Numbered from the stretch's first letter, positions 3,063 through 21,008 are shown. The stretch is DNA of 32,000 bases from Candidatus Methylomirabilis oxygeniifera (GCA_000091165.1 FP565575.1:1740001-1772000), one strand, 5' to 3'. Numbers and translations: made by a program. The notes: generated by a model from the sequence alone, not told the origin.

Positions 3063-3082
3063 CTAGCCCAAGTTCCGCAGTT
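3063..3082. repeat. Left terminal inverted repeat of the IS1634-like element
   Basis: CTAGCCCAAGTTCCGCAGTT. The reverse complement of 5142-5161 is CTAGCCCGAGTTCCGCAGTT. Confidence 0.8.
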
Positions 3083-3232
3083 GCCCACTGATTTGGGGAT
3101 ATTTCAGGCATTGTGAAGCGTCAACTCATTGAGATGGTAGCGGCTGGTCTTTGAAAAGCCGATGTAGTGCCGACCACCCTCTTGCGCTCGTTGTGTGCTC
3201 TGGTAGTATGGCGTAGCGCAGGAGGATGATCG

Positions 3233-4033
3233 ATGTATCTGCGGCGGCGATGTCGCAAGAAGAACGGCGAAGAATACGAGTCCTGGGCGCTGGTCGAAAC
3301 GATCCGTACCAGCCGAGGCCCGCGCCAGCGAACCGTGGCCACCATCGGCAAGCTTCCCGGTCTGGATCAGGAAGAGCGGATGGGGTGGGAAGAGATCGGC
3401 CGTGTGCTGGACGGCAAACCACGCCCTCAGCCCGACCTCTTTGCTCCCGACGCCGACGCGCCTCTTTGGGCGACGGTCGATCTCAAGAGGATGCAGATCG
3501 AGCGCCTCCGGCAGTTCGGCGACGTGTACCTCGAGCTCGTGCTGTGGCACCGGCTGGGCCTCGAGGATTTCTGCAATGAGCACATGCCTCCCGGCCGGGA
3601 AGAGATCCCCTGGTCGGTCATGGCCGCCGTGCTCACCCTGGCCCGGTTCTGCGCCCCGTCATCAGAGCTCCAGATCGCCGAATCGTGGTACGCAAAGACC
3701 GCCCTGGACGATCTTCTGGGCGTGCCTGCGGAAAAGATCAATGACGACCGGCTCTACCGCGCCCTGGACAGTCTGCTTCCGCATAAGGACGCTCTGTGCC
3801 AGCACCTGCAGCAGCGCTACGGCGAGCTGTTCGGGACCACCTTCGATGTTCTCGTCTACGACGTCACCTCAAGCGACTTTGAGGGGAGCGGACAGCGCAA
3901 CAGCAGGGCAACACGCGGGTATAGCAGAGACGGCCGGCCTGACTGCGTCCAGGTCTGTATCGGGCTCGTGACCAGCGCCGAAGGCCTGCCGCTCGCCTAT
4001 GAGGTCTTTGACGGCAACCGGGTGGATGTGTGA
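3233..4033 (+). pseudogene. IS1634-family transposase, N-terminal fragment (frameshifted)
   Basis: MYLRRRCRKKNGEEYESWALVETIRTSRGPRQRTVATIGKL... is the characteristic N-terminus. VLVYDVTS holds the first DDE Asp. The fragment ends ...VFDGNRVDV* inside a GTGTG run at 4028-4032. Confidence 0.8.
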
Positions 4034-5040
4034 CCACCGTGGAGGACATCATCGATCTCATGGAGACCAAATACGGCAAGGCCCGGCGGGTCTGGGTCAT
4101 GGACCGGGGCATGGTGAGCGAAGAGAACCTGGACACATTGCGAGTACGCAACGCTCACTACATCGTGGGCACGCCCAAGGCCATGCTCAGGAAGTTCGAG
4201 CGCGAGCTGACCGAAGCTGGCTGGGAAGCGGTCCAACCGGGCGTGGAGGTGAAACTCTGCGCGTCGCCGGACGGATCGAACGAGACGTTTGTCCTGTGCC
4301 GGTCCGAGGGCAGACAGGAGAAGGAGCAGGCGATCCTGAACCGCGTCATGACCCGGCTGGAACAGGGGTTGAACACGCTCAAAGAGCGGGCGGAGAAAAG
4401 CAAGCGCCCTGAGCGGCAAACGATCGAGCGCAGGATCGGCCGCCTTCTGGAGCGAAACAGCCGGGCGGCATCCCTATTTGATGTGACGGTAGAGGAGCGG
4501 ACCGGAGACGAGACGCCGAAGCTTCGCGTCACCATTACGAAGCAGGAAGATCACGCAGGCTGGGCGTTTCAGACCAGCGGCCACTACCTGCTTCGGAGCA
4601 ACTGGGAAGGCCGAGACCCCAAGGCGATCTGGAAGCTCTATATCCAGCTCACCCAGGCGGAAGACGCCTTCCGGACCACCAAGAGCGACCTGGGACTGCG
4701 GCCGATCTTTCACCAGACGACCGAGCGCACCGATGCCCATATCCTTGTCTGCTTCCTCGCGCTGGCTATGTGGCGGACGCTGCAGCAGGGGATGGAATGC
4801 GCGGGCCTCGGCACGGCGCCACGGAAGCTTCTGGAGGAGATGCGGGAAATCAGATCGCTGGACGTGGTGCTTCCGGCGAAGGACAGACAGATCAGGCTGC
4901 GGACCGTTTCCACCGCGCCGCAGGAACTGAAAATCTTGCTACAGCGAATGAACTACCCCGCAGCAAGCTACGGGGTATCAAATGCCAGAACAAAAAACCT
5001 GCGCGGCAAGCCCGCGGGGTATCAACCCTCAACGGAATGA
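4030..5040 (+). pseudogene. IS1634-family transposase, C-terminal fragment
   Basis: TTVEDIIDLMETKYGKARRVWVMDRGMVSEENL holds the second Asp, and YIQLTQAEDAFRTTKSDL is the Y..E..FR..K block. It continues the upstream fragment in the -1 frame. Confidence 0.8.
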
Positions 5041-5141
5041 AACTGCCGCTGCCGAACAGACCGAAAATCATCGAAAATGTAGTGCCGACTTTTGCTGATT
5101 GAGTATGCGAACGTACTGATAATCCAACACTTGGCTTCTTG

Positions 5142-5161
5142 AACTGCGGAACTCGGGCTAG
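5142..5161. repeat. Right terminal inverted repeat of the IS1634-like element
   Basis: AACTGCGGAACTCGGGCTAG, with one mismatch to the left repeat. Confidence 0.8.
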
Positions 5162-5584
5162 CCGAACTCCAGCGCCACAAGTTCCTGAAAAGCCCATTCA
5201 CGAAACCGATCATTTCCGCGTCGCATTCAAGCGGCTCGTCACCTCTCTGAATGCGTCAGAGGGACGTCAGGTCACGCTCGAACTGATTTAGGGCGACGAG
5301 CTGGGTACCAACCAGCGGCGACCCCCCTTGCTATTCGATGCCGACCCCTGAAGCATCTATGACACGTACTGTGCCGCGCGGTTCCTCGTTCCCGTTATCC
5401 GAATCGGCCTGGCGCAAGGTCTGGCACTGGATCACCCCAACGCTTCAAGACGCCATGCGGCAGACTCCCTCGCCTCCCCCCGCAGGTCGTCTGCCCCTGG
5501 AGCCTGCTGCTCAACTGGCTGGCCGTTACACGGCGCGGTCTCTCAGACCTCGAGCAGATCGCAGCGACGACCCGACGCCGGCGC

Positions 5585-5929
5585 TTATGGTCGTTGAGCG
5601 ACAGCGAGCGTCAGGTGTCCGACCGGCTCGGTTGTGGGCTTGACCGTAATCTCGATATCGTAGCCAGGCCGGTTCAGGCAGTCCATTAACTTGCGCTCGG
5701 ACAGGTTGGCGAAGTCGCCACGCAGCAACGTCGAGACCTTCGGTTGCGGAATACCCATGCGTCCGCCGGCCTCTTCTTGTGTCAGGCCGAGCTTACGTAT
5801 GGCGCGGGCGATCTCGATCACGAGGCCGGACTTGATCTTGAGCTTGTCGGTATCGGGCAGGTTCAAATCGGCAAAGACGTTGCCGGAGCTAGGTTCAACC
5901 GCGACGCCTTCAACGGTACGCTGTGCCAT
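5585..5929 (-). CDS. XRE-family HTH antitoxin (HigA-like)
   Basis: NVFADLNLPD...GLTQEEAGGRMGIPQPKVSTLLRGDFANLSERKLMDCLNRPGYDIEI is the typical HigA/XRE antitoxin pattern. Its ATG overlaps the end of the HigB-like remnant. Confidence 0.8.
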   Translation of the reverse strand: MAQRTVEGVAVEPSSGNVFADLNLPDTDKLKIKSGLVIEIARAIRKLGLTQEEAGGRMGIPQPKVSTLLRGDFANLSERKLMDCLNRPGYDIEITVKPTTEPVGHLTLAVAQRP

Positions 5930-6465: not shown

Positions 6466-8097
6466 TCAATCAGGCGCAGTTTCCTCCAAATGCGCGAGCG
6501 ACAAGCGATCTAGCTTACCCGTAACGGTGCGAGGCAGAGAATCTGAAACAATGATTTCGTGGGGGCACTTGTACTCTGCGATCTCACCCTTTACGAATTG
6601 TCGGATCTGTCCCACCATCTCTACTTGCCGAGTCAGTCCCTTCCGCAGCACCAAGATAGCGCGGATCCGCTCCCCGCGCATCTTGCCTGAAACCCCAACG
6701 ACGGCAGCATCAAGGACAGCGGGATGCTGCATCAAAACCCCTTCAACCTCGGCAGGGGCAATCTTGTATCCGCCACTGACGATTAGATCGTCGGTTCGGC
6801 TGATATGCCAGTAACGCCCTTCGGCGTCCCGCCGGAATCGGTCACCGGGAAGCGTCCAGCCGTCGCGGACAATCTCCTCCTGAAGATCCGGCCGCCGCCA
6901 GTAGCGGCAACCTGTCGGCCCGCGCAGGGCAATGATTCCCTCCGCCTCCCGTTCCTGAATCTCCGCGCCGCTATCGGCGAGAAGCCGAGCCTCATACAAT
7001 CCAACTGGGCGACCTGTGCAGTCGCCAATTGCTTCCCCTACTCGCTGCGACATCCAGATGTGCAGCATCTCTGTTGAGCCACAACCATCAAGGATCTGGA
7101 CGCCTGTTGTCTCCTGCCATCGTAGAAATGTATCGCGGGGCAACTTCTGGCCAGCGCTCACGGCTAAACGGACGCTCCGCCAAGTGATCCTCTCGCGGCA
7201 AGGAGCCTCTTCCATCAGCAGACGGCACGCGGTCGGTGTGCTGAACAAGATGGTCGGACACTCACGGCGGACCAGTTTAAGCCATTCCGCCGCGTCGAAA
7301 GGGGCTGATTCCAGCAAAACTGACGCACCGAATCGAAGCGGAAAGATCAGGAGGCCGCCAAGCCCATACGTAAACGCCAATGAAGAATGACCAGCAAATC
7401 GATCCTTCGGTTCGGGGGCGAGTACTTCTTGTGCGTAAGTGTCGGCAATGGCCAATAGATCACCGTGCGTGTGAATCGTGCCCTTGAGTGTGCCGGTCGT
7501 ACCCGACGTGTAGGCGACGATGGCCACGTCGTCAACGCTGGTCGGCGCCGGTTCACACGACCCGCTGCCTGCCGTAAGAAACCTTTCGTATGCGCTCTCC
7601 CCAAGGTCGTTCTGCCCGACCAGGATGCACAACCTCGGCACAGGCGCACACGCATCGAAGAGCGGGTAGAGATCGCCGGAGGTAACCACCGATGATGGTT
7701 CGCACTCAGCAAGGATGTGGTGCAGCTCGCGCCGTTTGAGCATCGGCATGGTTGCTACGACGACGGCGCCAATCCTGAGTGCAGCCAGCCACGTTTCGAT
7801 GAACTCCGGAATGTTCGGCAAATGGACAAGCACCCTATCCCCAGGCTTTACACCATTGGCGGCCAAGGCATTCGACAGACGATTGACTCGCTCAGCCAGA
7901 AAGCCATACGTCCAAGTCCTGTCACGGTGTATGATGGCTGGCCTGTTCGCTCGACCAACCCGCAAGTTGGAATCCAACAATGCGGCGCTCGCATTCAGGA
8001 GTCCGGAATAACCCAATATGTGGCGGGCATCCCGATAGGGCCAAAGCCTGGGATCGGGTAGGGCATCGGGGGGCAGTGCATGGTTAACCAAGCTCAC
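6466..8097 (-). CDS. AMP-forming acyl/aryl-CoA ligase (ANL superfamily)
   Basis: YTSGTTGTLKGTIHTHGDL is the AMP-binding signature. GYKIAPAEVEGVL and PRTVTGKLDR (A10 Lys) are also present. The overall pattern resembles benzoate/aminobenzoate-CoA ligases. Confidence 0.9.
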   Translation of the reverse strand: MSLVNHALPPDALPDPRLWPYRDARHILGYSGLLNASAALLDSNLRVGRANRPAIIHRDRTWTYGFLAERVNRLSNALAANGVKPGDRVLVHLPNIPEFIETWLAALRIGAVVVATMPMLKRRELHHILAECEPSSVVTSGDLYPLFDACAPVPRLCILVGQNDLGESAYERFLTAGSGSCEPAPTSVDDVAIVAYTSGTTGTLKGTIHTHGDLLAIADTYAQEVLAPEPKDRFAGHSSLAFTYGLGGLLIFPLRFGASVLLESAPFDAAEWLKLVRRECPTILFSTPTACRLLMEEAPCRERITWRSVRLAVSAGQKLPRDTFLRWQETTGVQILDGCGSTEMLHIWMSQRVGEAIGDCTGRPVGLYEARLLADSGAEIQEREAEGIIALRGPTGCRYWRRPDLQEEIVRDGWTLPGDRFRRDAEGRYWHISRTDDLIVSGGYKIAPAEVEGVLMQHPAVLDAAVVGVSGKMRGERIRAILVLRKGLTRQVEMVGQIRQFVKGEIAEYKCPHEIIVSDSLPRTVTGKLDRLSLAHLEETAPD

Positions 8098-9470
8098 GTA
8101 CTTACGCTCGCCGGACTCTCGACCGCATCAAATATGCCCCGATCAAGCTTGAACTCCTCGGGGCGCATACTCTCAAACCGGTCCCACGCGCTTGGGTGAA
8201 AGAACGTGCGCTTCACCGCTGCCGTGTAGTACACACCGTCGGGGGTCAATTCCAGGTCCGCGCCGTTCATCCGCGCCAATCCGAACTCCTCCAGGAGGCT
8301 GATCTCTTCGGGAAACGCTTCGCGAAGGCTCCTCCCGAATCGTGCGGCGAAATCCTTACCGTCTAGCCGTAAGTGCTCGATCCGCCGTACGGCGTAGTTG
8401 TACGGCTTCTCTTCCTCGGGGAAGATATGCCCCGTGTGCAGGGGCGGTTCCCCGGTAGAAACGGCCGTCTCATACTTCCCCAGGTGTGAATGATTCTTGT
8501 AGATACAGTCCTTCGCCTGGCTTATACTGTGGGCGCCCAACCCGATCACTGGTGCCAAATCCGCCATCAGCCTCTCATAAGTGAAGTCCTGCTTCCCGAG
8601 GCGGAAGTTATGGCGGGTGGTGCGCTGATAGCCCGCCTCTAGCAGGAACTGATAGGCTTCTTCGTACGTCTGCCGCGACCGGCTTGGCCGCAGGAGTGCG
8701 GCCCGATAGTTGTACAGGGCGATCCCCTCATGGCGGACAGAGACTGGGAACACACACACGTGAGGAGGGTGTAGGCGGAGAATCTCCTGACACGTGTGAC
8801 GCCATGACTCTTCCGTCTGTTCCGGCAAGCCGCACATCAAGTCCACGCTGAAGTCGTCAAACCCAGCCTCGCGGACACTCCGCAAAATACGCAGGATCTC
8901 TTCCGTCGTATCCTCACGATTCAACTTCTTCTTCAGGTCGTCGTCCAGGAACTGCACCCCGAAGCTCAGCCGGGTGATTCCCTCACGCTTCCAACCAGCC
9001 ATCAAGTTCGTCGTAATGCTGGTGTCCGGAAGTACCTCCATCGTGACATCCGCATCGGGACTGAACCGAAACCGTGCACGGACGCCGTCCATTATGGCAG
9101 CAACCTGTTCCACTGAAAGCAGTGAGGGGGTCCCGCCACCGAATTCCATGGATTCCACGGCCACATGGCCGGCCATGCCCGCCACGACGCGAATATCCTG
9201 TCGCAACAAATCCAGATATCGTTCGATTTCCGAGTCGGACCGCCCGTAGTAAGCCAGGAAATCACAGTAGGTGCATTTCGTTCGGCAGAAGGGAATATGC
9301 ACGTGCATCGCAGCATGCTCGCCTGGTGGTACCTCCGACCAGCTTTGCTGGACGGACTTCCTCGAAATCTCGCGCCAGGTCCGCGCATACGGGTAAGCGA
9401 GAATGAGGATGCCAGGATCGCGGCTCAAATCGCGTAGCAGCCGCACGCGCTTAGATGTTGATTCGCTCAT
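8094..9470 (-). CDS. HemN-like radical SAM enzyme (coproporphyrinogen III oxidase family)
   Basis: HVHIPFCRTKCTYCDF is the CxxxCxxC cluster motif. GGGTPS follows, and the length fits HemN-like proteins. I prefer the ATG at 9470 (GAGG 5 nt upstream) over the GTG at 9476. There is a 4-nt overlap with the ligase gene. Confidence 0.9.
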   Translation of the reverse strand: MSESTSKRVRLLRDLSRDPGILILAYPYARTWREISRKSVQQSWSEVPPGEHAAMHVHIPFCRTKCTYCDFLAYYGRSDSEIERYLDLLRQDIRVVAGMAGHVAVESMEFGGGTPSLLSVEQVAAIMDGVRARFRFSPDADVTMEVLPDTSITTNLMAGWKREGITRLSFGVQFLDDDLKKKLNREDTTEEILRILRSVREAGFDDFSVDLMCGLPEQTEESWRHTCQEILRLHPPHVCVFPVSVRHEGIALYNYRAALLRPSRSRQTYEEAYQFLLEAGYQRTTRHNFRLGKQDFTYERLMADLAPVIGLGAHSISQAKDCIYKNHSHLGKYETAVSTGEPPLHTGHIFPEEEKPYNYAVRRIEHLRLDGKDFAARFGRSLREAFPEEISLLEEFGLARMNGADLELTPDGVYYTAAVKRTFFHPSAWDRFESMRPEEFKLDRGIFDAVESPASVST

Positions 9471-9579
9471 AAACACCTCTCGGGCGCAGATGCCTCATTT
9501 GGTTCACTTACCCTGACGCAACCTTGCTCAAGACTGACGAACACCGCACAACGAGGGGCTGAGCGGTAATCGCAAACTC

Positions 9580-10662
9580 CTAGACGACCCTGTTGATCTT
9601 TGGACTACCCAACTTTTCCGCGTGGTGCTCAAACGCTCTAACCAATTGGTGGACCGTTGCACCATCGCCCGTGTCACTCCCGATCACCTGGATTCTAGAC
9701 GGCGGGTCCTTATCGCCAAACGGGAAGTCAAGGACATGGAAAAGCAGTGCGCGATCCGTTGTGACCACCATATGGAAAGGGGCATGTCCGTCCTTGAATA
9801 CCCAAACCTGCTTCTGAATCTCCAGCAGGCGATTAGGCTCAGAGCTTTGCAGGGCACCTAGTAGCGCTATTGCCTGATAGTAAGGTTTCCTTAGTCGCAG
9901 GTCGTCCCAACGGCCGCTCCCGCTCCAAGCCCAGTAGAAGCCTCCCAGGCTCGTATTCTTGACAGTGTTCAGGTCCGCTTCTTGCACATCGCGGGGCTGG
10001 AGGGAGACCTCTTTATCCCTCTCGTCCATATCTCTAGGGATAACCCATTCCCAGTCTCTGCAGATTACGCGCACCGTGATCCGCGGGTTGTTGAACGCAT
10101 GGGAGAGTTTGTCCAGGACTTTCGGATATCTCTCGTGCGCCGATATGTTTCCGAATGAAACCGCATTGGCGACTATGAGTATTTGTCCTGCCCCATCCTT
10201 CGCTCTCTCAACCTCTGCGTCCACCATCCTGCCAACGTGTTCAAGGAGAACGTCATAGGAATAAATCCGAGACAGGATATCGTCCAACTTATTCAGGGTG
10301 AAGAAGAAGCTTGCAACAGTTACAACAGCGATCCCAATAGGCAAGACTACCCCAACCGACCCCAACCATGTATTCGGTACAGCCAATGAAACCGACAACA
10401 GGGCCACGGCCAGCAGAAAGAGGCAAGGCGCAATGAACTGCTTACGATTCACAGTCCGGCCGAATACACCGAGACTGCGGTGGTAGTAGTAAACAGTTCG
10501 CCATGCTGCTGGTATTGCTATCGCGACAGCCACTGAAACGGCCAAACCAGCTCCTATCATTTTCGCAGGACCAAGATATGAAGAAATAAGAAACAGCATG
10601 CCGAGGAAGCTACCTAGCCCAATGAGGAGGTCAGCCTTGCTAAACCCCTTGTGGTTCACCAT
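9580..10662 (-). CDS. Polytopic membrane protein with an uncharacterised cytoplasmic C-terminal domain (paralog B)
   Basis: There are about four hydrophobic helices in the first ~150 aa, then a soluble domain (ILIVANAVSFGNIS...ITVRVICRDWEW...PFHMVVTTDRALLFHVLDF...VRAFEHHAE). This domain aligns with 12624-13796. I prefer the ATG at 10662, just after the stop of the upstream chimeric ORF (GGAAGGTGAGGCAATG). Confidence 0.75.
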   Translation of the reverse strand: MVNHKGFSKADLLIGLGSFLGMLFLISSYLGPAKMIGAGLAVSVAVAIAIPAAWRTVYYYHRSLGVFGRTVNRKQFIAPCLFLLAVALLSVSLAVPNTWLGSVGVVLPIGIAVVTVASFFFTLNKLDDILSRIYSYDVLLEHVGRMVDAEVERAKDGAGQILIVANAVSFGNISAHERYPKVLDKLSHAFNNPRITVRVICRDWEWVIPRDMDERDKEVSLQPRDVQEADLNTVKNTSLGGFYWAWSGSGRWDDLRLRKPYYQAIALLGALQSSEPNRLLEIQKQVWVFKDGHAPFHMVVTTDRALLFHVLDFPFGDKDPPSRIQVIGSDTGDGATVHQLVRAFEHHAEKLGSPKINRVV

Positions 10663-10666
10663 TGCC

Positions 10667-10867
10667 TCACCTTCCCACCCAATGGACAAATCGCCGTTCG
10701 GCAAATTCGATTCCCTTGTTCAGTACGTATCCCATCAATCTCACTACCAGAATCGACGCGCGCATCTCCGCCGAGCGAAAAATGAGATGGAAGTCGTAGA
10801 GGCGCATGCCGGGGTCGCGGCTCAAATCGCGTAGTAGCCGCAGGCGCTTAGAATTCGATTCGCTCAC
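10667..10867 (-). CDS. Chimeric 66-aa ORF: radical SAM 5' end fused to ABC permease 3' end (duplication junction)
   Basis: The N-terminus MSESNSKRLRLLRDLSRDPG matches the rSAM MSESTSKRVRLLRDLSRDPG. The remainder, MRLYDFHLIFRSAEMRASILVVRLMGYVLNKGIEFAERRFVHWVGR, matches the permease C-terminus MRIYDFHLMFRSAEMYASVLVVGIIGYVLNKIVEVAEKHFVHWSGR. Confidence 0.45.
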   Translation of the reverse strand: MSESNSKRLRLLRDLSRDPGMRLYDFHLIFRSAEMRASILVVRLMGYVLNKGIEFAERRFVHWVGR

Positions 10868-10891
10868 AGTAGCCTCGACAGAATCGCGGCC

Positions 10892-11377
10892 TCATCTGCA
10901 CGACCAGCACAGTTCAAACGCTGTCTCCAGAAACCGAATGAATGGCTGGTCGGTCGTCTCGAAAACAGACGCCTCAAACTTCTGTATTGCTCCCCAAGCA
11001 CCGAGAAACAACACGGCACGCTCCCCGTCCGCAACTGCAAAGCTCAGCTCTGGTGCGGGGCCGCCGCCAACTCGCCGAACATGCCCTCCCGCGGTTTCAA
11101 GCGCAGCGATCATCGCCTCGGTGCGCTCGAAGTACGGGGTGTCTGCCATCTTGCTGCCAACGCGAGCGAAAAAGGCTTGAGAAGACTCCGGGTCAAGGCA
11201 AATGAGACGGCACCTCACGCCGGCTTTTGCCTTGCGGACCAGAACGTGCTCCGGGTCAATAAATTTGCGGAGTTCCGGCCGATCAACAACCTGGCCTGGG
11301 TACGGGCTTCTCACCTTGATGTCCAAGGCTGTCGAAGCCGACTCCACCAACTTGTAGAAGCTATCAGCGATGGACAT
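10892..11377 (-). CDS. Hypothetical soluble protein related to the C-terminal domain of the two membrane paralogs
   Basis: AGGAGG lies 9 nt upstream of the ATG. VRCRLICLD, ELSFAVADGERAVLFLG and SVFETTDQPFIRFLETAFE parallel EVQTLCLDW, PLHFVLTSRASIVFNTL and AFESTDGALRRRLRAAFEYH in paralog A. Confidence 0.65.
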   Translation of the reverse strand: MSIADSFYKLVESASTALDIKVRSPYPGQVVDRPELRKFIDPEHVLVRKAKAGVRCRLICLDPESSQAFFARVGSKMADTPYFERTEAMIAALETAGGHVRRVGGGPAPELSFAVADGERAVLFLGAWGAIQKFEASVFETTDQPFIRFLETAFELCWSCR

Positions 11378-11404
11378 GGGAACGGCCCTCCTGAAAAGAA
11401 ATCA

Positions 11405-12178
11405 TCAAGTCAGAATTCCAGCAACCTGTATAATCTTCGAAATTTGCCGCGAGACATCCTTGTCGGGGTGAGGATGCTCACCGGGAACGGATATCACTAC
11501 CACCCTTGCACCGGCAGACGTGATCACCTTCTCAGTCTCTTCTATCAAGCGCTCAGGGACTACGCTGTCGTCTTGGGCGCAGATGATGACATGTTGCCGA
11601 GTCGGAACAATCCAGCTCTTGATCTCTTCGTCACTTGGGTCTTGGAGCGACGCAATGAATTGTGCGTCCACCTTCGCATTGTCGAACTCAGTAAAGCCGA
11701 GACGGCGGATCTCATGCAGTCGGTACCGTATCTCCAGCGAGGTGCGTAGCCATATGATAGGTGCCCACATGATCAATGGCACATCAGGCGCTTCCAGCAG
11801 CGCTTCCATGGCGATTCTTGCGCCGTATCCGCGTGCGATTACGACGTCCGGCATCCGTCTGCTTTGCCTGTGCAACGCGGCCATCGCTGCTTTCGTGTCT
11901 GCGACCATGGACACCGCCGTCCTCAACGATTCCCCTACCTCCGGCTTCAGGCTGTGCCGGTAATCAAACCGAAGCGATGACCAAAATTCCACGTCTAGGC
12001 TGTCGGCAAGGTCATCGAGCGACGACCGGCATTCCAAACTTCCCGTGAGACCTCGACAGATAAGTGCCCATTTCCTCCCGACCGTCGTACGCCGGAGTTT
12101 GCCGGCCAGCGAGCCCTTATCCTCAACAAGAATCTGAATGGGCTCATCCCCCGCTACTGCGCTTGACTCGTTTGACAT
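11405..12178 (-). CDS. Alpha/beta-hydrolase-like protein with a non-canonical nucleophile elbow
   Basis: The strand/helix pattern is ALICRGLTGS ... FDYRHS ... VVIARGYGARIAMEAL ... ICAQDDSVVP ... VPGEHPH. I chose the start at 12178 (AGGAGGTGACTATG) because the longer track ORF overlaps the thioesterase gene. Confidence 0.65.
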   Translation of the reverse strand: MSNESSAVAGDEPIQILVEDKGSLAGKLRRTTVGRKWALICRGLTGSLECRSSLDDLADSLDVEFWSSLRFDYRHSLKPEVGESLRTAVSMVADTKAAMAALHRQSRRMPDVVIARGYGARIAMEALLEAPDVPLIMWAPIIWLRTSLEIRYRLHEIRRLGFTEFDNAKVDAQFIASLQDPSDEEIKSWIVPTRQHVIICAQDDSVVPERLIEETEKVITSAGARVVVISVPGEHPHPDKDVSRQISKIIQVAGILT

Positions 12179-12180
12179 AG

Positions 12181-12630
12181 TCACCTCCTGGGAATCTCCG
12201 CTGTACTCATCGCCATTTCCTGCTTTCTGATCACGGCCAGCGTACAACGCGAAACGCAGATCAAATCGCCAGCCTCGTCCGTAATCCTGACGTCCCACAC
12301 CTGAGTCCGGCGGCCGATGTGAAGCGGCGTTGCGGTAGCCGTTACCACGCCGTCCCGCTTCGTGCGCAAGTGATTCGCGTTAATCTCCAGGCCGACGACG
12401 CACTCCCTCGACTTGTCAACATGCAGCATTCCGCCGATAGATGCGGCGGTCTCGGCCAGCGCCACTGATGCACCACCATGAAGGAAGCCTAGAGACTGGT
12501 GAATCTTCTGCGTAACGGGCATATGGGCAACCACGCGTTGTTTCGTCGCTTCATTCACGGCAATCCCAAGAGCGCGACGGAGGCCCATTTGACCCGTATG
12601 CCTGTGTGTTATCATGAAACGTCCTACCAT
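12181..12630 (-). CDS. PaaI/YdiI-type hotdog-fold thioesterase
   Basis: QSLGFLHGGASVALAETAASIGG ... GRRTQVWDVRITDEAGDLICVSRCTLAV is the typical PaaI-family pattern. Its start overlaps the upstream stop (ATGGTAG). Confidence 0.85.
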   Translation of the reverse strand: MVGRFMITHRHTGQMGLRRALGIAVNEATKQRVVAHMPVTQKIHQSLGFLHGGASVALAETAASIGGMLHVDKSRECVVGLEINANHLRTKRDGVVTATATPLHIGRRTQVWDVRITDEAGDLICVSRCTLAVIRKQEMAMSTAEIPRR

Positions 12631-13796
12631 GGCGACGGAATCAAAGTGGCCCTGCTTTCATCCGCGTGATACTCGAAAGCGGCCCTGAGCCTCCGCCTTA
12701 GCGCTCCGTCGGTACTCTCGAAAGCGGCCACATGAACTTCTTCTCCCTTCCTGTCCCCCCCGTTATTTGCCGGAAGATCCAGAGTGTTGAACACAATGGA
12801 TGCCCTCGATGTGAGTACAAAGTGAAGAGGAACTCTTTTTGGTTTCTGATCGGGTTTTCCCAACGCGACGGTACGTCGCGGAGCCTTCTGGCGCTGAGCC
12901 GACGTTTGGGAGACATGTGTCACGGCACCCAAAATCCCCAGTGCTTCAGTTAGCGCCAACGCTGCATCAGCTTTCTTGTTCAAGTGTTCAGCGACCTCGC
13001 GGTAGAACTCCGCCAAAGGCGTCTCGATTATGTCCAACTCCCTTTCCACTGAATCTGATGGACGTTCCGGAACATGACTCCGCTGGTCCGCCGATAGTGA
13101 AGGATAGAGCCAATCCCGTTGCCCACCGGCATCGACTGACGTCCAATCCAGACAGAGCGTTTGAACTTCTAAGCTCCGGTTGCCGAGTGCGTCATGCAAT
13201 GTCTCATAGAATCGCAAGAAACTCATGCGATCCGAAAGATTCCCAAAAGTCGGAGCATTCGCCATGATCCAGACGAACCGGTTTCCGCGATGTGCGTCCC
13301 TTGCTTCGTCGTTGATGAGTTTTGCGACGCGCTCATGAAGCGTCGCGTAGTCGACAGCGCGCCCTTCGATCTCCTGAAGCCGCACCAGTGTTGCAAAGAA
13401 CCCAAGTATCGTTATCAGGCCCAGAAGTGCGGCAAAGATCGTGCCAGGTCCGCCAAACAAGGTCTTCCCAAGTTCTGAGAGATCAATGCCGGGAGGGACG
13501 CACGCAGGGCGTCGTTGTCCTACGACAAACAAGAAGAGCAGCGACATGCCAACAATACCTGTCCAAATGGGAACGGCATGCCAACTCCTTCCCCCGCCGA
13601 ACAGGAGAAAGAGGACACTGCGATACCCGCGCAGCAAGTTGGACAAGCCGAAAAGCGCGATACCGAGGAACACGACGAAGATGACGTGCGCAGACAACGG
13701 AAGGCTATCGGGCACCAACCAAAAAACAGTCACGATCCACGCCAGACCCGCGATGATGCCAACCAACAATACCAAGAAAAGGCTGGTTCGCAGCAT
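12624..13796 (-). CDS. Polytopic membrane protein with an uncharacterised cytoplasmic C-terminal domain (paralog A)
   Basis: The N-terminus is hydrophobic, followed by the domain FVWIMANAPTFGNLS...LEVQTLCLDW...PLHFVLTSRASIVFNTLDL...LRAAFEYHADE. I prefer the ATG at 13796 (TAGGGAGAAACCTATG, directly after the permease stop). Confidence 0.75.
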   Translation of the reverse strand: MLRTSLFLVLLVGIIAGLAWIVTVFWLVPDSLPLSAHVIFVVFLGIALFGLSNLLRGYRSVLFLLFGGGRSWHAVPIWTGIVGMSLLFLFVVGQRRPACVPPGIDLSELGKTLFGGPGTIFAALLGLITILGFFATLVRLQEIEGRAVDYATLHERVAKLINDEARDAHRGNRFVWIMANAPTFGNLSDRMSFLRFYETLHDALGNRSLEVQTLCLDWTSVDAGGQRDWLYPSLSADQRSHVPERPSDSVERELDIIETPLAEFYREVAEHLNKKADAALALTEALGILGAVTHVSQTSAQRQKAPRRTVALGKPDQKPKRVPLHFVLTSRASIVFNTLDLPANNGGDRKGEEVHVAAFESTDGALRRRLRAAFEYHADESRATLIPSPW

Positions 13797-13806
13797 AGGT
13801 TTCTCC

Positions 13807-14556
13807 CTATCGGCCACTCCAATGAACGAAATGTTTCTCGGCGACCTCAACGATCTTGTTCAGTACATATCCGATAATCCCCACCACCAGAACGGAGGCG
13901 TACATCTCGGCTGACCGGAACATCAGATGGAAGTCATAGATACGCATGCCCAGTCCTGTCCGAGTCCCGATGAACATTTCCGAGACCACAACAATGATGA
14001 GCGAAAGAGAGAGCGTGATGCGCCACCCGGCGACCAATCCGGGAAGGACACTAGGCATGAGAACGCGAACGAAGAGAAACAGACCATTTGCACCCGCGAT
14101 ACGCGCCCCAAGAACGCGATATCGTGGGATCGTCCGCACAGCATAGGCTGCTTGGATCGCGTTGATGAGCGAACACGTGAAAGCGGCAACGGCAATGCGC
14201 GACAAGTCGCCCAGGCCGAAGAGAAGCATCGCCAAAGGGATCAACGCGGGCGACGGCATGGATCGGAAGAAATCAAAGATGACCTCGACCGATTCATAGA
14301 GTCGCGCCCATACCCCAAGGGGAACGCCCACGACGACGCCCACGATGGCGGCGATCACGAACGCAATTCCCGTCCGATACAGAGTCGCTCCCGCATCACG
14401 CCACAGCGGACCATCCGCTAGTAGCGCTCCCAAGGTCGCCAGTACACGCCACGGGGAGGGAAGGAAGATCGGACGGACAAGGCCAAGGCCCGTGACTGCG
14501 GCCCACAGCGCCAACAGGACCAAGGGGCCGAGAACGATCCACCATTTCCTTATCAC
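13807..14556 (-). CDS. ABC transporter permease (NitT/TauT, SsuC-like)
   Basis: It has six predicted TM segments and a binding-protein-dependent permease loop pattern (IQAAYAVRTIPRYRVLGARIAGANGLFLFVRVLMPSVLP). There is a 4-nt overlap with the ATPase gene. Confidence 0.9.
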   Translation of the reverse strand: MIRKWWIVLGPLVLLALWAAVTGLGLVRPIFLPSPWRVLATLGALLADGPLWRDAGATLYRTGIAFVIAAIVGVVVGVPLGVWARLYESVEVIFDFFRSMPSPALIPLAMLLFGLGDLSRIAVAAFTCSLINAIQAAYAVRTIPRYRVLGARIAGANGLFLFVRVLMPSVLPGLVAGWRITLSLSLIIVVVSEMFIGTRTGLGMRIYDFHLMFRSAEMYASVLVVGIIGYVLNKIVEVAEKHFVHWSGR

Positions 14557-15320
14557 CGCCCCACCTCCTGCAGGAAAGTAGCAACGACTTCGCGTCGCAG
14601 GTTCGAGAACTCGACGCTCGTCAACAGGTCGTGCTGCCGGGGACGAAGGAATGGGACGGGAAACCGCTTCAGCACGCTCGCCGGGATCTTGCTGAGCATG
14701 ATCACCTCGTCGCTGACGTACAGGGCCTCATCCACGTCATGCGTGACGAACAGGACTGCCGTGGAGTTCGTTTTGACGATGGACTCGACGAAGTCCTGCA
14801 TCCTGAAGCGCGCCCGGTTATCCAAGGCGGAAAACGGCTCATCGAGGAGGACATTGGCCGGTTCCTGAATGAGCGTGCGCGTCAGGGCGACCGTCTGTTG
14901 CTGCCCGATACTGAGTTGGTAGGGATAGTTGTCGCGCGGGAAACCGAAGCCGTGCTTGTCGAGGAATGCAACGGCCAGTTCGCGTGCGACGGCAGGGGCG
15001 ATACCCATTGCGCGGAGACCGAAGGTTACGTTGTCGAGTGCCGACTCCCAGGGAAGAAGCACGTCGCGGAAGTTCTGGAAGGCGTAACCCACCACGGGAG
15101 CATGAGCGTGTTTGCCTGTTACGGAAACGTCGCCTCCGTCGGCCGTTTCGATTCCCGCCACGATGTTCAGGATCGTAGTCTTGCCGCAGCCGTTCGGTCC
15201 GAAGAGCGCCACCACCTTGCTTTCCGGTACGTCCAGGTCAATGCCGTCGAGCACCGTAACTGACTCTCCGGTCTCCTTTGACCGAAAGCCTTTCCTCACG
15301 CTCTTCAGACTGATCGCCAT
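14553..15320 (-). CDS. ABC transporter ATP-binding protein (NitT/TauT family)
   Basis: Walker A is GPNGCGKTT, the signature is LSIGQQQ, Walker B is VLLDEPFSALD, and the H-loop is VTHDVDEA. Confidence 0.95.
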   Translation of the reverse strand: MAISLKSVRKGFRSKETGESVTVLDGIDLDVPESKVVALFGPNGCGKTTILNIVAGIETADGGDVSVTGKHAHAPVVGYAFQNFRDVLLPWESALDNVTFGLRAMGIAPAVARELAVAFLDKHGFGFPRDNYPYQLSIGQQQTVALTRTLIQEPANVLLDEPFSALDNRARFRMQDFVESIVKTNSTAVLFVTHDVDEALYVSDEVIMLSKIPASVLKRFPVPFLRPRQHDLLTSVEFSNLRREVVATFLQEVGR

Positions 15321-15344
15321 AGCGCCTCTCGTCTCTGAAACGGG

Positions 15345-16322
15345 CTATCTGCCGGCAACGAAGTACAAGCCGGCGGTAGCGACACGCTTGGGCAGGACGC
15401 CCTTCTCCGCGTACAGATCGGCCAGTGTCTGAACCGAATCGCGGTCCATGGTATCGGGGCCCCAGTTGTCATAAAGGGCCACCTTCGCCACGATGTTGGA
15501 GTCAACCGGCGCGTACTTCAGGAACGTGAGCGCCGCTTCCTCTGGATGCGCCTTGAGGAACTGGTGTGCCGCCGTCAGTCCCGCAATGATCCTTCCTACG
15601 ACCTTCGGTTTCTCGGTGGCCATGCGTGCCGAGACAACACTGACCGCGGTCGGGAAGGGCTTCTGGATGAATTCATAGAGGGGGTTGACCGAGATTGTGC
15701 GTGCGAGACCTTTTGACTCAAGAAGCGTCCCGGTCGGTTCCAGACAGAACAAGGCGTCCACCTGTCCGCTCTCAAGAGCTTGCGGTTGCAGTGGCGGTTT
15801 CAGTTGAACGATCTCGACTTCGCGCTCGGCGTCGAAGTACCGTCCGAGGATCAACTTCAAGAAGACCACCATTTGCGAGCCGGGGAAGGTTCCGACCTTC
15901 TTGCCCCTCAAGTCGGCCAACGTCTTAATGGGCGAATCCGTCTTGACGACGATCCGGTGAACCTTCGTGTCCGCGGTCGCCGCAGTCATTTCGATGATGC
16001 GGAACTGGTCCGGGGTGTTTGCCTCAAGGGCAAGGGCCGCTTCAAGAGCGACTATGGCGGTTGCGTCAATCCGTCCAGCGATCAGCGCTTCCAACGCCTG
16101 ATTGCTCGTCTCGAACTTGATCGGCTCGACCTGTAGTCCCCGCGCCTTGAAGAGGCCCTTCTCGACGGCCACAAAGAAACTCGCGTCCGAGGTGATCGGC
16201 AGATACCCCATGCGGACGCTCTCCATCGTCTCCGGCGGTTGACTGCGCCGGCAAGAGAAGACGAAGATTGCCGCACAAGCCAACCCGACGACCAGTAGAC
16301 GAACGAACGCTCTCCTATTCAT
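15345..16322 (-). CDS. ABC transporter substrate-binding lipoprotein (NMT1/SsuA/TauA-like)
   Basis: MNRRAFVRLLVVGLACAAIFVFSC is a signal peptide plus lipobox. VRMGYLPITSDASFFVAVEKGLFKARGL ... LRGKKVGTFPGS is a typical NMT1/SsuA-like pattern. I placed the start at the internal ATG at 16322. Confidence 0.88.
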   Translation of the reverse strand: MNRRAFVRLLVVGLACAAIFVFSCRRSQPPETMESVRMGYLPITSDASFFVAVEKGLFKARGLQVEPIKFETSNQALEALIAGRIDATAIVALEAALALEANTPDQFRIIEMTAATADTKVHRIVVKTDSPIKTLADLRGKKVGTFPGSQMVVFLKLILGRYFDAEREVEIVQLKPPLQPQALESGQVDALFCLEPTGTLLESKGLARTISVNPLYEFIQKPFPTAVSVVSARMATEKPKVVGRIIAGLTAAHQFLKAHPEEAALTFLKYAPVDSNIVAKVALYDNWGPDTMDRDSVQTLADLYAEKGVLPKRVATAGLYFVAGR

Positions 16323-16983
16323 ACCGCTTCCTTTCTGCCAGAACCAAGACTGACCATACCACACCTTCAAATCCGGATCACCGCCTAACCGACCTCGTAG
16401 TCGATCTATCTTCTCCATGGCAAGGGGTGAAGGTTCTCCATAATGTGTTACTTATGTCCCTGAACATCTGTCACTCTTGACTCCGGTCTGTACACCTTCT
16501 GGGGGAGGGAGATCAACTGCTTCAGGGAGAAGAGGCCGGAGACGGTCAAGGGCCGAAACTTGACATGCAACGAGGCCAGGAACTCCCACACCCTTCCCGT
16601 TGCCGCCTGTTCTCGCTCCTCGAGGAGCACCCAGAAATCCTAAGATGACTCGCTTCTCGGGGACGGTTAGCGGTGTATACACCTCGAAGCTATAGCCTCA
16701 TGACGGTCTTCTGCGGCATCTCCAGCCGACGACGGGCAATATGGCCTTTCCTCAGATTCTCGGCGTCCTCAGACACTCGACATCATAACGACTCCATCTT
16801 CAATCAGCCTAGTACAGATTACGGAGTAATCTATACCCTCTGCAGCAGCAAGCGCGATTCCCGAGAGCACCGTTAACCTACACTCCAGCGCCTGACACTT
16901 ACGATCAACGGCCACGAAAAACGGGCCGCCGTATCGCTTTGTTGGGCATCAATCCCCATTAACAAATCGTCTACATTCAGCCA

Positions 16984-19900
16984 TTATCGGTCGTCGAAGA
17001 TATCTCTTTGCGACTCTCTCTCAGCATCACGTTCGTATCCTTCGGCCAAGCTGCGAACTGCGTCAGCCACTCTGTGAAAGCCACTATCGGAAAGCGCCTT
17101 GGCTTTCACCCGATAATCTACTGCGATCTGTCTTTCCTGTTTACCATGGGAGAAGCCATGGGTCCCACGTTTGTTAAATAGGCCAGCTGTAAAGCCTCGC
17201 CGCATCTCTGGTACATCCCTTACGTCCAGAGCCGCCGCGATAGATTTGTGGATCCAAAGGCCTCCGGGGTCTTGCGGCGCATACGCCAGCGCTTGTCCCA
17301 ACTGATCCATAGCGATCCGAAAATATCCAGACTCCTTACAGCGCCTCTTCACCTCGTCCAGCCACTTCGCAAATCTATCGCCATCGAAGCTGCCGTCCGG
17401 CAACGAACCAGGAAGGATGCGCCATCCGTGCAGCAACGAATACGCATTTTGAGCGATTCGCTTCTGGGCCTCGCTGATTTCTCGCTTCGTTTCCTGATCC
17501 TCCTTGTCCGAACAAAATACGACTGCAAGAACTTCGCAGAAGAACGTCGGGGATGATGCCAGCTTATGTTCGAGCACCTTAGGTTCGCCACCGTATAATC
17601 GATTTAGGAGCGGTAGATAGTACCATTCAATCTTAGAGAGATCGTCCGAATCCGGGGGCGCATTTTCTTGCAGCCATTTAACCACCTCGACAATGTGGTA
17701 TTGATCGATTTGTTTTTGTTGTTCCTCTGCACTCAATGCACCTAACAAGGCGGCTGACGCGAGCGGCATCGGGATGGGCACCTTCCCGTCCGCGAGCAAG
17801 TAAAGGCAATCTATGGCCCTCGCTGGCTGCCCATTTGAGGTCAACTTTTCGGCAGCTTCCAGTAAGTCGTCCGGCTCCATACCCCACGGGCTGACCTGAA
17901 CCTGCTTCCAGTAGCTATGGGCCTCGCCCCCAAGGATTCTTTCTGCCCGGCGCCAAGTCTGCTTCTCAGAAGGCACTAGTAAGAGGAAGGCCAAGAGCTG
18001 TTCCTTCCGCCAAGGTTGGCTCAGTTGTTGATCAACCCATGGCCACTTTTGCGTCCAAAATCGCCGCCATACAAAGTTGCCCAGAAACTGCTTGATGGGT
18101 CTATCGCCGTGCTCTAGGAATGCCGGCAACAGGAATGCATCTATGTTGGAATCTTCTATCGCGCCTAACGCATCCCCTACCTTTTGTGGTGACTCAACCT
18201 GTTGTGCGAATTGAATGACTCCATCCACGCCTTTGACGCCCAGGATTGCTTTAATTGCATCCTGTCGAATGTGATCTAGCCTCTGTCGTTCCTGCTCATA
18301 ATTTCCCTTTTCTTCGTACAAATCAAAATCACGCTCGGTGAATAGTCGCCGGTTGGCAAGCTCGAAAGACGCTGGAGCTAACCAGCGCGCCACCTCCTCA
18401 ATCTTCGCGACACGCTCCGCTGGCATCGCCCATTGAGCGTCTGCATACTTCCGGTGCTTCAATGCGATGTCCTTTAACGCCTCCCAGAGCGGCACGCGAT
18501 CCGCTTCAGGAAGCGACGTAACAGCTGAAGACGATAAGTGATTCAACACCTGAGAGTGCGCTGGTTCAGGCAAGTCTCCCAGGCGATCTACCAGCTGGGC
18601 AAGTTTGTCCAGCTGGCGTGCGGCGATCTGTGTACACATCTCAGCATAGAGCTGAACTTGTGCCCAATATTGAGCGATCGTAACTGTTTCCTTCCATCCG
18701 GGCGGGATAAGTGATCGCCAAATCGGCTTGCGTGTACCGGACGTTGCCCCATGGAAGCTGGGAAGTAGGCTGACCAATACATTCCAAGCAACCTCAGGGT
18801 GTTCGCGAAGCAATGATTCCAGCGCGCTTCTCCGGACCGGTAGGTCGGCGAGCGTTTGGGCAAGCCATGGAAGAAAGATATCGACCAGTGAATTGCGAGG
18901 TCGATTGGCCCAACTACCGCCAGGATCTATAGAGGCTAAGTCTCCGAGCAGAGTAGTTACGCGTCCTAGATAATCTGGATGCCACGCAAGGGTCTCAAGC
19001 GCCCAAAGGGTCCCAGTAATGTAATTCTGGCCGCCCAAGGGGCCTCCGCCCTCCTGCCGAAAAATGTCAATAAAGGGGCTGGTGGCTGGATCTTCGACTG
19101 CCGCCTCGACAGCATCGAGAAACTCGTCAGGCGCAGCCTCAGCAAGAAGTGGCATCTCATTGTTGAGGCTCGCCCATGTTAGCCAGTCCGCCTCGTGTAA
19201 TAGCTTGCGCACGACAAGCCTTGCAGTTCCTTCAGCCTTGCCCTGTGAAGTGGATGACAGGGCGTTTGCTTTTGCTCCGAGTAAGGTTAACGACTCGACT
19301 ACTCCTTCACGAATTAAACGCGAGTGGGCCAGCACCTTTCCATGTATAGAAGCCGCATAGCGTTCATCCTTTGGAAGGTCAAATTGCGGGTCCTTCTCCC
19401 CCAATATCCGCAACGCCATCTTTTGAAAGCGATCAAGGTCTTCGTCGGTCATCCTCGGTCCGAGCGCCGACCACGCTTCACCGCGAGAGATGACTTTCCA
19501 TACTTCATTTCGCTGGATAAGGGGAGGGTCCGCGCGCAATGTCTCAGCTCTGACTTCCTCGATCCACTCCCCGTAGGCTTTTCCCAGGAGAATCTCCATC
19601 GCTTCTCTGTCCGCCGCACTGTCGCCTTTCCATTTTCCAACCATGGATGCCTGTGCCAACAGGCGTGCGTTTTCCCAAGTGGCATAGGGCGGCAGTTCGC
19701 CCAGTCCGCGAAGGAAGCGTTTCAATGCAGCCAGGCTCTGCGCTCCAGCGCTCGCCAATTCAGCAGCCCGTTCTTGGGCAAAGCCGCTATCAATTAGAGT
19801 CGTCTCGATCAGGCTACGTGAGGGGCTCATTATTGGAACGAGTTTTTCAGCGCCGTGTGACCAGGCGCCGGAAACCGAGAAGATGATGCCGTGACCTCGT

Positions 19901-20793
19901 GTACGCGCCGCCAGGTGTAGCTGCTCATTCGAATCAGCTAAGTCCAGTCTCGGACTTGCCACCAGGATGTGAAAGCACCGCAAATTGGAAAAGGTATGCC
20001 ACGCGTCGGGGTCGGAGATGAATAAACACCGGCTGCTAAAGGCACGCCGCGTGTTCTCATCCAACGACTCCAGAAATGCGGCGACGAAATCTTCTGCATC
20101 GTTTTCACTCTCCACGGAAAGAATCAATTGCTGAGTTTCGTGACGGAAGAGGCGCTCAAGTTGCAGGCAGGCGTTTTCTCGTCCCGCGAGGAAAATCTTG
20201 GGCGGTAACGGGGGGTCGTCCTTGCCACCCAACTGCGCGAGGTGCGACCAGTGCTCAGCCGGTGTTTGGAATCCTGCGAGAGCTTTGACTAGGCCGATGC
20301 GCTGAAGCAGCCATTTCCCCATAGCTGGGAATTCGCGCAGCCACTCGCACAGTTGCACTCCATCAATGACCTTGACCTCCTTCCAGCCATCCCCCTGCCG
20401 CTTCTGAATCCAGGCAGCTTGGGATGGCTGGTCCCAGCCCCTGCTTCTTGGTGTTACAAAGACAAACGTTACGTCCGCCCGCTCCGCTACCGGCGTTTCG
20501 TCAGTTCGCTTCGTGTAGTTTTCTGTTGCCCTACCCTGAGCATCTGCGCCACGACTAATTTCCCAATAACTCGTTTGCTTGGGAACGAATTGCCGAAAGC
20601 CGCCTTCCGTTTGAACCATGCCATCAAGTCCTGGTAATCCGATTGCGTCGCCGTATGGAATTCGGCACAAGGTCAAATCTGGCACGGAAAAGTTTACGAG
20701 TTGAGCGACTAGCTCCGGTATTACCGGCTCACTGTCGCGTCGATCAGCGAAGTCTTCTAACTCGCTTGCCGTAACTAGCTTCGTATGCTCCAT
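16984..20793 (-). CDS. 1269-aa hypothetical protein: N-terminal alpha/beta domain plus long helical-repeat-like body
   Basis: It is a long uninterrupted ORF with AGGAG 6 nt upstream of the ATG. I found no Walker A, DEAD, HxH, HKD or other catalytic motif by eye. After about residue 170 the composition is Leu/Ala/Glu-rich. Confidence 0.85.
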   Translation of the reverse strand: MEHTKLVTASELEDFADRRDSEPVIPELVAQLVNFSVPDLTLCRIPYGDAIGLPGLDGMVQTEGGFRQFVPKQTSYWEISRGADAQGRATENYTKRTDETPVAERADVTFVFVTPRSRGWDQPSQAAWIQKRQGDGWKEVKVIDGVQLCEWLREFPAMGKWLLQRIGLVKALAGFQTPAEHWSHLAQLGGKDDPPLPPKIFLAGRENACLQLERLFRHETQQLILSVESENDAEDFVAAFLESLDENTRRAFSSRCLFISDPDAWHTFSNLRCFHILVASPRLDLADSNEQLHLAARTRGHGIIFSVSGAWSHGAEKLVPIMSPSRSLIETTLIDSGFAQERAAELASAGAQSLAALKRFLRGLGELPPYATWENARLLAQASMVGKWKGDSAADREAMEILLGKAYGEWIEEVRAETLRADPPLIQRNEVWKVISRGEAWSALGPRMTDEDLDRFQKMALRILGEKDPQFDLPKDERYAASIHGKVLAHSRLIREGVVESLTLLGAKANALSSTSQGKAEGTARLVVRKLLHEADWLTWASLNNEMPLLAEAAPDEFLDAVEAAVEDPATSPFIDIFRQEGGGPLGGQNYITGTLWALETLAWHPDYLGRVTTLLGDLASIDPGGSWANRPRNSLVDIFLPWLAQTLADLPVRRSALESLLREHPEVAWNVLVSLLPSFHGATSGTRKPIWRSLIPPGWKETVTIAQYWAQVQLYAEMCTQIAARQLDKLAQLVDRLGDLPEPAHSQVLNHLSSSAVTSLPEADRVPLWEALKDIALKHRKYADAQWAMPAERVAKIEEVARWLAPASFELANRRLFTERDFDLYEEKGNYEQERQRLDHIRQDAIKAILGVKGVDGVIQFAQQVESPQKVGDALGAIEDSNIDAFLLPAFLEHGDRPIKQFLGNFVWRRFWTQKWPWVDQQLSQPWRKEQLLAFLLLVPSEKQTWRRAERILGGEAHSYWKQVQVSPWGMEPDDLLEAAEKLTSNGQPARAIDCLYLLADGKVPIPMPLASAALLGALSAEEQQKQIDQYHIVEVVKWLQENAPPDSDDLSKIEWYYLPLLNRLYGGEPKVLEHKLASSPTFFCEVLAVVFCSDKEDQETKREISEAQKRIAQNAYSLLHGWRILPGSLPDGSFDGDRFAKWLDEVKRRCKESGYFRIAMDQLGQALAYAPQDPGGLWIHKSIAAALDVRDVPEMRRGFTAGLFNKRGTHGFSHGKQERQIAVDYRVKAKALSDSGFHRVADAVRSLAEGYERDAERESQRDIFDDR

Positions 20794-20802
20794 GGGAGAC
20801 TC

Positions 20803-20988: not shown

Positions 20989-21008
20989 TCATTCCGGCTT
21001 TCCACACC

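Follow-up and report, generated by a model that had tools for sequence, protein, structure and literature searches.

A 32,000-nucleotide stretch of the genome of Candidatus Methylomirabilis oxygeniifera (GCA_000091165.1, FP565575.1:1740001-1772000), called the window throughout, encodes on its minus strand two polytopic membrane proteins, A (390 amino acids (aa), positions 12624-13796) and B (360 aa, 9580-10662), which share a C-terminal domain that falls into no curated Pfam family. In related loci of several lineages the gene for this type of protein directly follows the permease gene of a NitT/TauT-type ATP-binding cassette (ABC) importer. The family appears to be undescribed, as do its linkage to the importer and the surrounding operon, for which a literature search found nothing. 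A third protein, C (161 aa, 10892-11377, minus strand), is soluble, with no transmembrane (TM) segment by hydropathy, and probably represents an insert-less copy of the same domain. An original prediction, made from the sequence alone, had described one uncharacterised domain present three times at this site, twice membrane-anchored and once soluble; the positions and all the sequence blocks that it quoted are present in the window.

The A/B domain family and its genomic setting

Both A and B consist of about four N-terminal hydrophobic segments followed by a C-terminal domain of about 240 aa. In A, the membrane anchor covers aa 1-138 (13383-13796), with about four TM helices by hydropathy (helices 2-27, 34-56, 75-93 and 117-144 in the AlphaFold2 (AF2) model), and the domain, delimited by BLASTP to B and by the domain profile search, covers aa 139-390 (12624-13382). 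The corresponding parts of B are aa 1-124 (10291-10662, about four TM helices by hydropathy) and aa 125-360 (9580-10290), the latter belonging to a subfamily other than that of A (BLASTP to A; B is 61% identical to the TM-domain protein of a Verrucomicrobiia metagenome-assembled genome (MAG), locus L020). BLASTP aligned A with B over 280 aa (E-value 2e-26, 27% identity), across the last TM helix and the entire C-terminal domain, in agreement with the common domain originally proposed. A and B are clearly paralogues, and two copies of the domain are certain. Across the family, Lys and Arg residues in the loops number 233 on the side of the domain and 104 on the opposite side, and the proteins fused or adjacent to family members as partners have no signal peptide, suggesting that the domain of A and B lies on the cytoplasmic side of the membrane.

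The family is coherent but very rare. A word-indexed search of 5.8 billion clusters returned three to four near relatives each for A/B and for C, and an exhaustive HMMER scan of 1.84 billion representatives with the domain profile yielded 52 proteins at E ≤ 1e-3, 31 of them at E ≤ 1e-10. Nearly all 52 have three to five TM helices ahead of the domain, and 48 were usable for the family alignment and profile. Among 185,579 species genomes (one genome per species), two contained a member, a Pirellulales MAG and a Verrucomicrobiia MAG; first scans of genomes and metagenomes with narrow patterns of the A domain had found no members, and the full 52-sequence alignment was too diverse for deriving search patterns. 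The domain, which the original prediction could not name, also stayed nameless in database searches: Pfam gave no family at E ≤ 1 for the domain in A, B or C, none in the domain region of the 52 members and no phospholipase D (PLD) family in these members at E up to 10, NCBIfam and PADLOC matched none of A, B and C, and PDB sequence searches with family and C queries gave no credible match. Searches of plasmid records by tblastn with the A domain and with C also returned no match.

Several motifs are kept down to about 20% identity, namely P-x-x-G-N-x-S/T after strand 1, C-L/I-x-W, F-Y, P-F-H-L-x-x-T-x-x-R-A-I and G-F/Y-E-T-x-D. The motif His is not universal, being replaced by F, Y, R or N in several distant members. 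A and B have all the features that define the family: every motif (in A, IMANAPTFGNLS, VQTLCLDW, FY, VPLHFVLTSRASIVF and AAFESTD), the TM anchor, and a position behind the permease gene (A) or behind a permease remnant (B).

Mapping of the window proteins onto ten related loci showed that the gene for the TM-domain protein lies directly after a permease gene of the same NitT/TauT type in all nine other loci with upstream sequence. This order also holds in L022, in which the transporter is only 32-39% identical, and the permease stop and the TM-domain start are close or overlapping (a 10-nucleotide (nt) gap in the window; also in L021). A binding-protein gene is found upstream in L005 and L019-L023. 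Downstream, genes for a hotdog thioesterase, a canonical GxSxG α/β hydrolase, a nucleophile-less hydrolase-like protein, C, a radical S-adenosylmethionine (SAM) enzyme and a coenzyme A (CoA) ligase occur in varying combinations. In L020, L021, L023, L025 and L026 the TM-domain gene is followed by one of hydrolase type, L021 and L025 ending after the canonical hydrolase. Wherever C is present (window, L006 and L020), the hydrolase-like protein is encoded as well and the radical SAM gene comes right after C. The tie of the domain to a transporter/radical SAM/CoA-ligase operon, as first suggested, is borne out by these loci.

The hydrolase-like protein of the window (257 aa, 11405-12178, minus strand; weak Pfam match to Hydrolase_4, no PADLOC match) reads ARGYGA where GxSxG is expected and has a Gly at the nucleophile position, as read from an alignment with canonical GxSxG hydrolases, with the Asp and His positions kept. 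It shares 47% identity (E 1e-80) with aa 342-599, the C-terminal half, of P0025, which, like P0038 and P0039, is a protein of about 600 aa in which the TM anchor, the domain and the hydrolase-like module are fused. The nucleophile-less module is also found at L020:11140-11844 and at L023:5127-6725, in the latter case fused behind a canonical Ser hydrolase. The protein is likely to be a pseudo-hydrolase or a non-canonical enzyme.

Protein C and a possible phospholipase D-like fold

The assignment of C to the family comes from profile comparisons. Pairwise alignment, which is significant for A against B, is not significant for C against A (BLASTP E 0.024) or against B (E 0.44), and a pair of shallow profiles for the A/B domain and C (A2 versus A3) gave a probability of 3%, also not significant. 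When the 48-sequence family profile was used, HHalign produced a collinear, nearly full-length alignment with C (153 columns with a four-sequence C profile), which pairs the blocks noticed originally: VRCRLICLD with LEVQTLCLD, ELSFAVADGERAVLF with PLHFVLTSRASIVF, and FLETAFE with LRAAFE. A three-sequence C profile reached a score of 33.5 (E 8.6e-5), which none of 150 column shuffles and none of 150 block shuffles attained. With the L020 homologue (53% identical) as fourth sequence, the score was 40.6 (E 2.6e-6, probability 89%, z about 5.3), compared with 12.2 for the reversed profile, and one of 100 block shuffles attained the real score. It could be argued that C is unrelated to A and B and that the shared blocks are convergent β-α-β patterns, in which case the domain would be present twice and A and B would have no link to PLD proteins. 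The pairwise results fit this explanation, as do the E-values of only 5e-4 to 0.02 obtained with separate subfamily profiles, the single block shuffle that beat the real score, and an alignment register around the His that varies by one or two residues between alignments. However, a full-length, collinear alignment with these E and z values and a low-scoring reversed control, the earlier shuffle test without a single equal among 300, and the occurrence of C in these operons only make an unrelated C improbable. Of the three copies originally counted, two are therefore certain and the third is probable at the profile level.

The original prediction had also pointed to a loose, PLD-like order of the blocks. 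C was compared with a home-made PLD reference profile of 16 sequences, comprising eight Nuc-type single-lobe proteins from plasmids and phages and eight HKD lobes, from E. coli ClsA, ClsB, ClsC and PssA. The three-sequence C profile matched the reference with a probability of 74% (E 2.9e-5; none of 120 block shuffles as good) and the four-sequence profile with a probability of 88% over 131 columns (HHalign E 3.3e-6; none of 100 block shuffles as good, z 5.3). In this register, E110, S112, D117 and G126-A127 of C stand at the His, Lys, Asp and Gly-Ser positions, such that the catalytic His and Lys are replaced by Glu and Ser while the Asp and the Gly are kept. These matches lend moderate support to a PLD/Nuc-like fold without HKD in C, for which Pfam returned no PLDc match. 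The motif HxK(x)4D(x)6G(S/T)xN is found in none of the three proteins (A reads PLHFVLTSRASIVFNTLDL, B reads PFHMVVTTDRALLFHVLDF and C reads ELSFAVADGERAVLFLGAW), consistent with the absence of HxK(x)4D noted at the outset. Because this defining motif was tested and is lacking, A, B and C were not filed as PLD enzymes. An equation of the family His with the PLD His or Lys position was rejected, and the position was left uninterpreted, because its register relative to HxK shifts by one or two residues between alignments.

Single-lobe proteins of the PLD superfamily (Nuc of IncN plasmids, NucT) resemble C, with its about 160 aa, in size and have the same order of secondary structure elements. The helix-strand 'SAxxxLDIKV', the 'AKAGVRCRLICLD' strand, the Asp of HxKxxxxD, the Gly of GSxN and the C-terminal 'E...D...F...W' element of the Nuc/Cls/Pss reference are in register with C. 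The single-lobe PLD proteins differ from the window proteins in the catalytic residues, since C has E110/S112 for His/Lys and A and B keep a His without a reproducible HxK register and have no Lys. In addition, A, B and C have no Pfam PLDc or PLDc_2 match, the A/B family has no direct profile match, and A and B possess a four-TM anchor and an insert of about 50-100 aa after strand 2.

For A and B themselves we lean towards a PLD/Nuc-like fold, by transitivity through C and on account of recurrent, non-significant Foldseek matches. The AF2 model of A has a domain order of a-b-a-b-[insert]-b-b-b-a, and Foldseek with this model against the PDB placed PLD3, PLD or F13 at ranks 1, 3-6, 9, 11, 20 and 33 (E 0.24-3.5, TM-score about 0.2, non-significant), and a poxvirus F13-like protein at rank 9 in the viral library BFVD. 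Several results weigh against this assignment. The 48-sequence A/B family profile did not match the PLD reference significantly (E 0.06-0.16), merging C into either side brought no improvement, and subfamily profiles were also non-significant. All Foldseek E-values were at least 0.24, the predicted local distance difference test (pLDDT) score of the A model was only 50.9, and the C model (pLDDT 41) was unusable, its Foldseek matches to glyoxalase and GNAT proteins (TM-score about 0.2) being meaningless; the AF2 alignments were built from window and word-search sequences, and pLDDT was low for that reason. The PLD-like idea thus holds moderately for C, while direct profile and structure searches do not extend it to A and B. 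The cardiolipin-synthase analogy drawn originally did not stand: ClsA-type enzymes likewise have an N-terminal membrane anchor followed by a cytoplasmic α/β domain, but they carry two HKD lobes per chain where A and B have a single lobe that lacks HKD, and the A/B family shows no significant similarity to Cls lobes (E 0.39).

Possible functions of the domain

Our tentative proposal is that A and B are membrane-tethered cytoplasmic modules for ligand handling or docking in the importer pathway, built as single PLD/Nuc-like lobes without HKD, because their genes adjoin the permease gene, the anchored domain is placed on the cytoplasmic side, hydrolase-type proteins are fused or adjacent to it, and the conserved polar loops lack a known catalytic motif. 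The A/B family would then be a remote PLD/Nuc branch after loss of the HxK(x)4D motif, and the TM-domain protein would act beside the permease as an accessory of the NitT/TauT-type importer, being neither a phospholipase nor a nuclease. The P-x-x-G-N-x-S loop and the H/T/R/E-T-x-D cluster might bind the imported substrate, likely an aromatic anionic compound, or its CoA derivative, and the TM-domain protein could dock the soluble α/β-hydrolase-type partner. Uptake of an aromatic acid or ester would in this way be coupled to hydrolase, aryl-CoA ligase, HemN-like radical SAM and thioesterase steps. By analogy with single-lobe PLD-fold proteins, A and B may form dimers of lobes, and C could be a soluble, degenerate and optional second lobe that pairs with either of them; as C is found only in some operons, an A/B:C heterodimer cannot be how the family works in general. 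A single site forms at the interface of paired PLD lobes (PMC10690185), and catalytically dead PLD-like domains such as DUF1669 of FAM83 proteins can serve as anchors (PMC6008594). FAM83 is a conceptual precedent only, for anchoring or docking without PLD activity: these proteins are vertebrate-only and soluble, and no sequence relation to the A/B family was found, for which Pfam scans gave no PLD-type or DUF1669 family.

The aromatic-acid theme is suggested by matches of operon proteins to the benzoate-CoA-ligase family and to MenI/EntH-type models, both below curated cut-offs. Among TauT-family importers are phthalate and phthalate-ester systems with an ester hydrolase as partner. The nosiheptide proteins NosI, NosK and NosN, an adenylate-forming ligase, an α/β-hydrolase-fold transfer protein and a HemN-like class C radical SAM enzyme, form the same trio of enzyme types as is found in the operon and act on an aromatic carboxylic acid. 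The operon of the window differs in that it contains no carrier protein or thiopeptide genes, is headed by an ABC importer and encodes a hydrolase-like protein without the Ser nucleophile; the analogy says nothing on the TM-domain protein.

Beside the fold results given above, three points count against a ligand-handling or docking role within such a pathway: L021 and L025 have neither a radical SAM nor a CoA-ligase gene within 2-3 kb, C is restricted to the operons of the window, L006 and L020, and the conserved polar residues would be no less expected of an enzyme than of a docking module. Ranked nearly as likely, and thus also only a possibility, is genuine catalysis by the domain, whose active site would be a new one set on an α/β scaffold, PLD-like or otherwise. 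At the membrane it would act chemically on the imported compound, for instance by cleaving an ester or phosphoester or by transferring an acyl group from the aryl-CoA. Candidate residues would be the N/S of GNxS, the Cys of CLxW, the His/Thr/Arg strand and the Glu/Asp of GFETxD. Family-wide conservation of polar loop residues at about 20% identity and an operon that otherwise consists of enzymes are in line with catalysis, and the fused partner has lost its nucleophile (Ser to Gly), so that the chemistry might reside in the A/B domain. Replacement of the His (F, Y, R, N) in several distant members, the lack of HKD or any other known catalytic motif, and the lack of any enzyme-family match argue against it. 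In a more elaborate and rather doubtful version, the domain would be a new catalytic offshoot of the PLD fold, in which GNxS, the Cys, His-Thr-Arg and Glu-Thr-x-Asp replace HKD, and A or B together with C and the hydrolase-like partner would form a transporter-docked membrane enzyme complex for an undescribed first step on the imported aromatic compound, before CoA ligation and radical SAM modification.

The invariable position right behind the permease gene and the combination of a membrane anchor with a cytoplasmic ligand-type domain would also fit a regulatory subunit or sensor of the ABC importer, which would bind a product or intermediate and gate transport (trans-inhibition) without catalysis or scaffolding. 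Fusion to and adjacency with hydrolase-type proteins are unexpected for a pure transport regulator, however, and the soluble paralogue C adjoins the radical SAM gene, which renders this explanation quite unlikely. With a defence island (GajB-like UvrD helicase, AAA protein, type III methyltransferase) on one side of the operon and insertion sequence and toxin-antitoxin genes on the other, A and B could be taken for membrane effectors of the neighbouring anti-phage island. Such a defence role was rejected as highly implausible, given that A, B and C have no PADLOC match and that the metabolic linkage to ABC, radical SAM and CoA-ligase genes is kept in other lineages without defence neighbours.

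Whatever its role, the family is real, coherent and unannotated and has a clear genomic signature, and it flags a compact cross-phylum operon for an importer, the TM-domain protein, hydrolase-type proteins, a thioesterase, a HemN-like radical SAM enzyme and an aryl-CoA ligase. If A and B are indeed HKD-less docking or ligand-handling lobes, a membrane-tethered branch would be added to the PLD-fold superfamily, along with an accessory component genetically locked to one type of ABC importer. Because the family is very rare, the impact would be on protein-family and pathway discovery and not on general biology.

Operon layout, origin of B and flanking genes

The genes form a single operon on the minus strand (6466-16418), from the ABC importer genes through the aryl-CoA ligase gene. 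It begins with an NMT1-like periplasmic substrate-binding protein of the NitT/TauT-type importer (15345-16418; Pfam NMT1_2 E 1.4e-24, NMT1 E 1.9e-20), the transporter ATPase (14553-15320; ABC_tran E 8.7e-23) and the permease (13807-14556; BPD_transp_1 E 5.5e-13), which is immediately upstream of A. A is followed by a hotdog-fold aryl-CoA thioesterase similar to MenI, EntH and PaaI (12181-12615; Pfam 4HBT E 1.1e-18; NCBIfam MenI_Listeria E 2e-47, below the cut-off), the hydrolase-like protein, C, a 66-aa open reading frame (ORF) between C and B (10667-10867), B, a HemN-like radical SAM enzyme containing CRTKCTYC (8094-9476; Pfam Radical_SAM E 3.5e-22, HemN_C) and an aryl-CoA ligase of the benzoate-CoA ligase family (6466-8097; Pfam AMP-binding E 1.2e-69), whose match to NCBIfam TIGR02262 (E 7.7e-104, 348 bits) is below the cut-off of 375. 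The best NCBIfam score of the radical SAM enzyme was to the STM4012 family (203 bits, cut-off 380), with the HemN, ChuW/HutW and HemW models scoring about equally; because all of these scores are below the cut-offs, the enzyme was placed outside every named HemN-like subfamily. The gaps between the genes from the permease to C are 0-27 nt, which fits translational coupling. The mechanically derived ORFs 12181-12630 and 11405-12298 (minus strand) overlap each other and the stop codon of A, and gene callers gave shorter starts for both (144 aa for the thioesterase and 257 aa for the hydrolase-like protein).

The 66-aa ORF is a recombination scar that marks the insertion of the segment containing B. 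Its N-terminal 21 aa copy the start of the radical SAM enzyme (17 of 21 residues identical to that of the window), its C-terminal 47 aa copy the end of the permease (36 of 47 identical to L020, 34 of 47 to the permease of the window), and its DNA is about 75-80% identical to 13807-13950. In L006, a near-identical operon (radical SAM enzyme 97% identical), C is directly followed by the radical SAM gene and B is missing. The scar, together with this operon without B, indicates that B arrived as a 'permease end - B - radical SAM start' segment from a B-type operon. The closest non-identical relatives of A are metagenomic (P0002, 60%, and P0003, 40% identity), B has a close relative in the L020 protein mentioned above, and A and B are members of old, separate subfamilies. 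An in-place duplication of A giving rise to B was rejected on the grounds of 27% identity, distinct subfamilies and the scar, and the term triplication, used originally, is thus misleading for these copies.

The operon as a whole has mosaic identities. The binding protein, ATPase, permease and thioesterase of the window are 75-92% identical to those of the Pirellulales MAG L019 (permease, 92%), but identity to L019 falls to 52-56% for the radical SAM enzyme and the CoA ligase. The latter two are 97% and 94% identical, respectively, to L006 and 60-71% identical to the Verrucomicrobiia MAG. This pattern suggests recombination or horizontal transfer between operon variants.

On one side, the operon is flanked by a block resembling a defence island (16984-32000, minus strand). 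It encodes a 1269-aa protein with no Pfam or PADLOC match, a UvrD/GajB-like helicase (21009-23081), a 1030-aa protein (23116-26208) whose C-terminal ATPase matches Ppl-, AriA- and GajA-like proteins, a type III methyltransferase (26269-29229) and a further large ORF (29670-32000) that runs past the window edge. The other flank (379-5929, coordinates transferred from L001 and L002 gene calls) contains mobile-element and toxin-antitoxin genes, including an rve integrase/transposase (379-1284), an RHH and ParE pair (about 2233-2771), DUF4277 and DDE_Tnp_1 transposases (3233-5040) and an HTH_37 protein (about 5585-5929).

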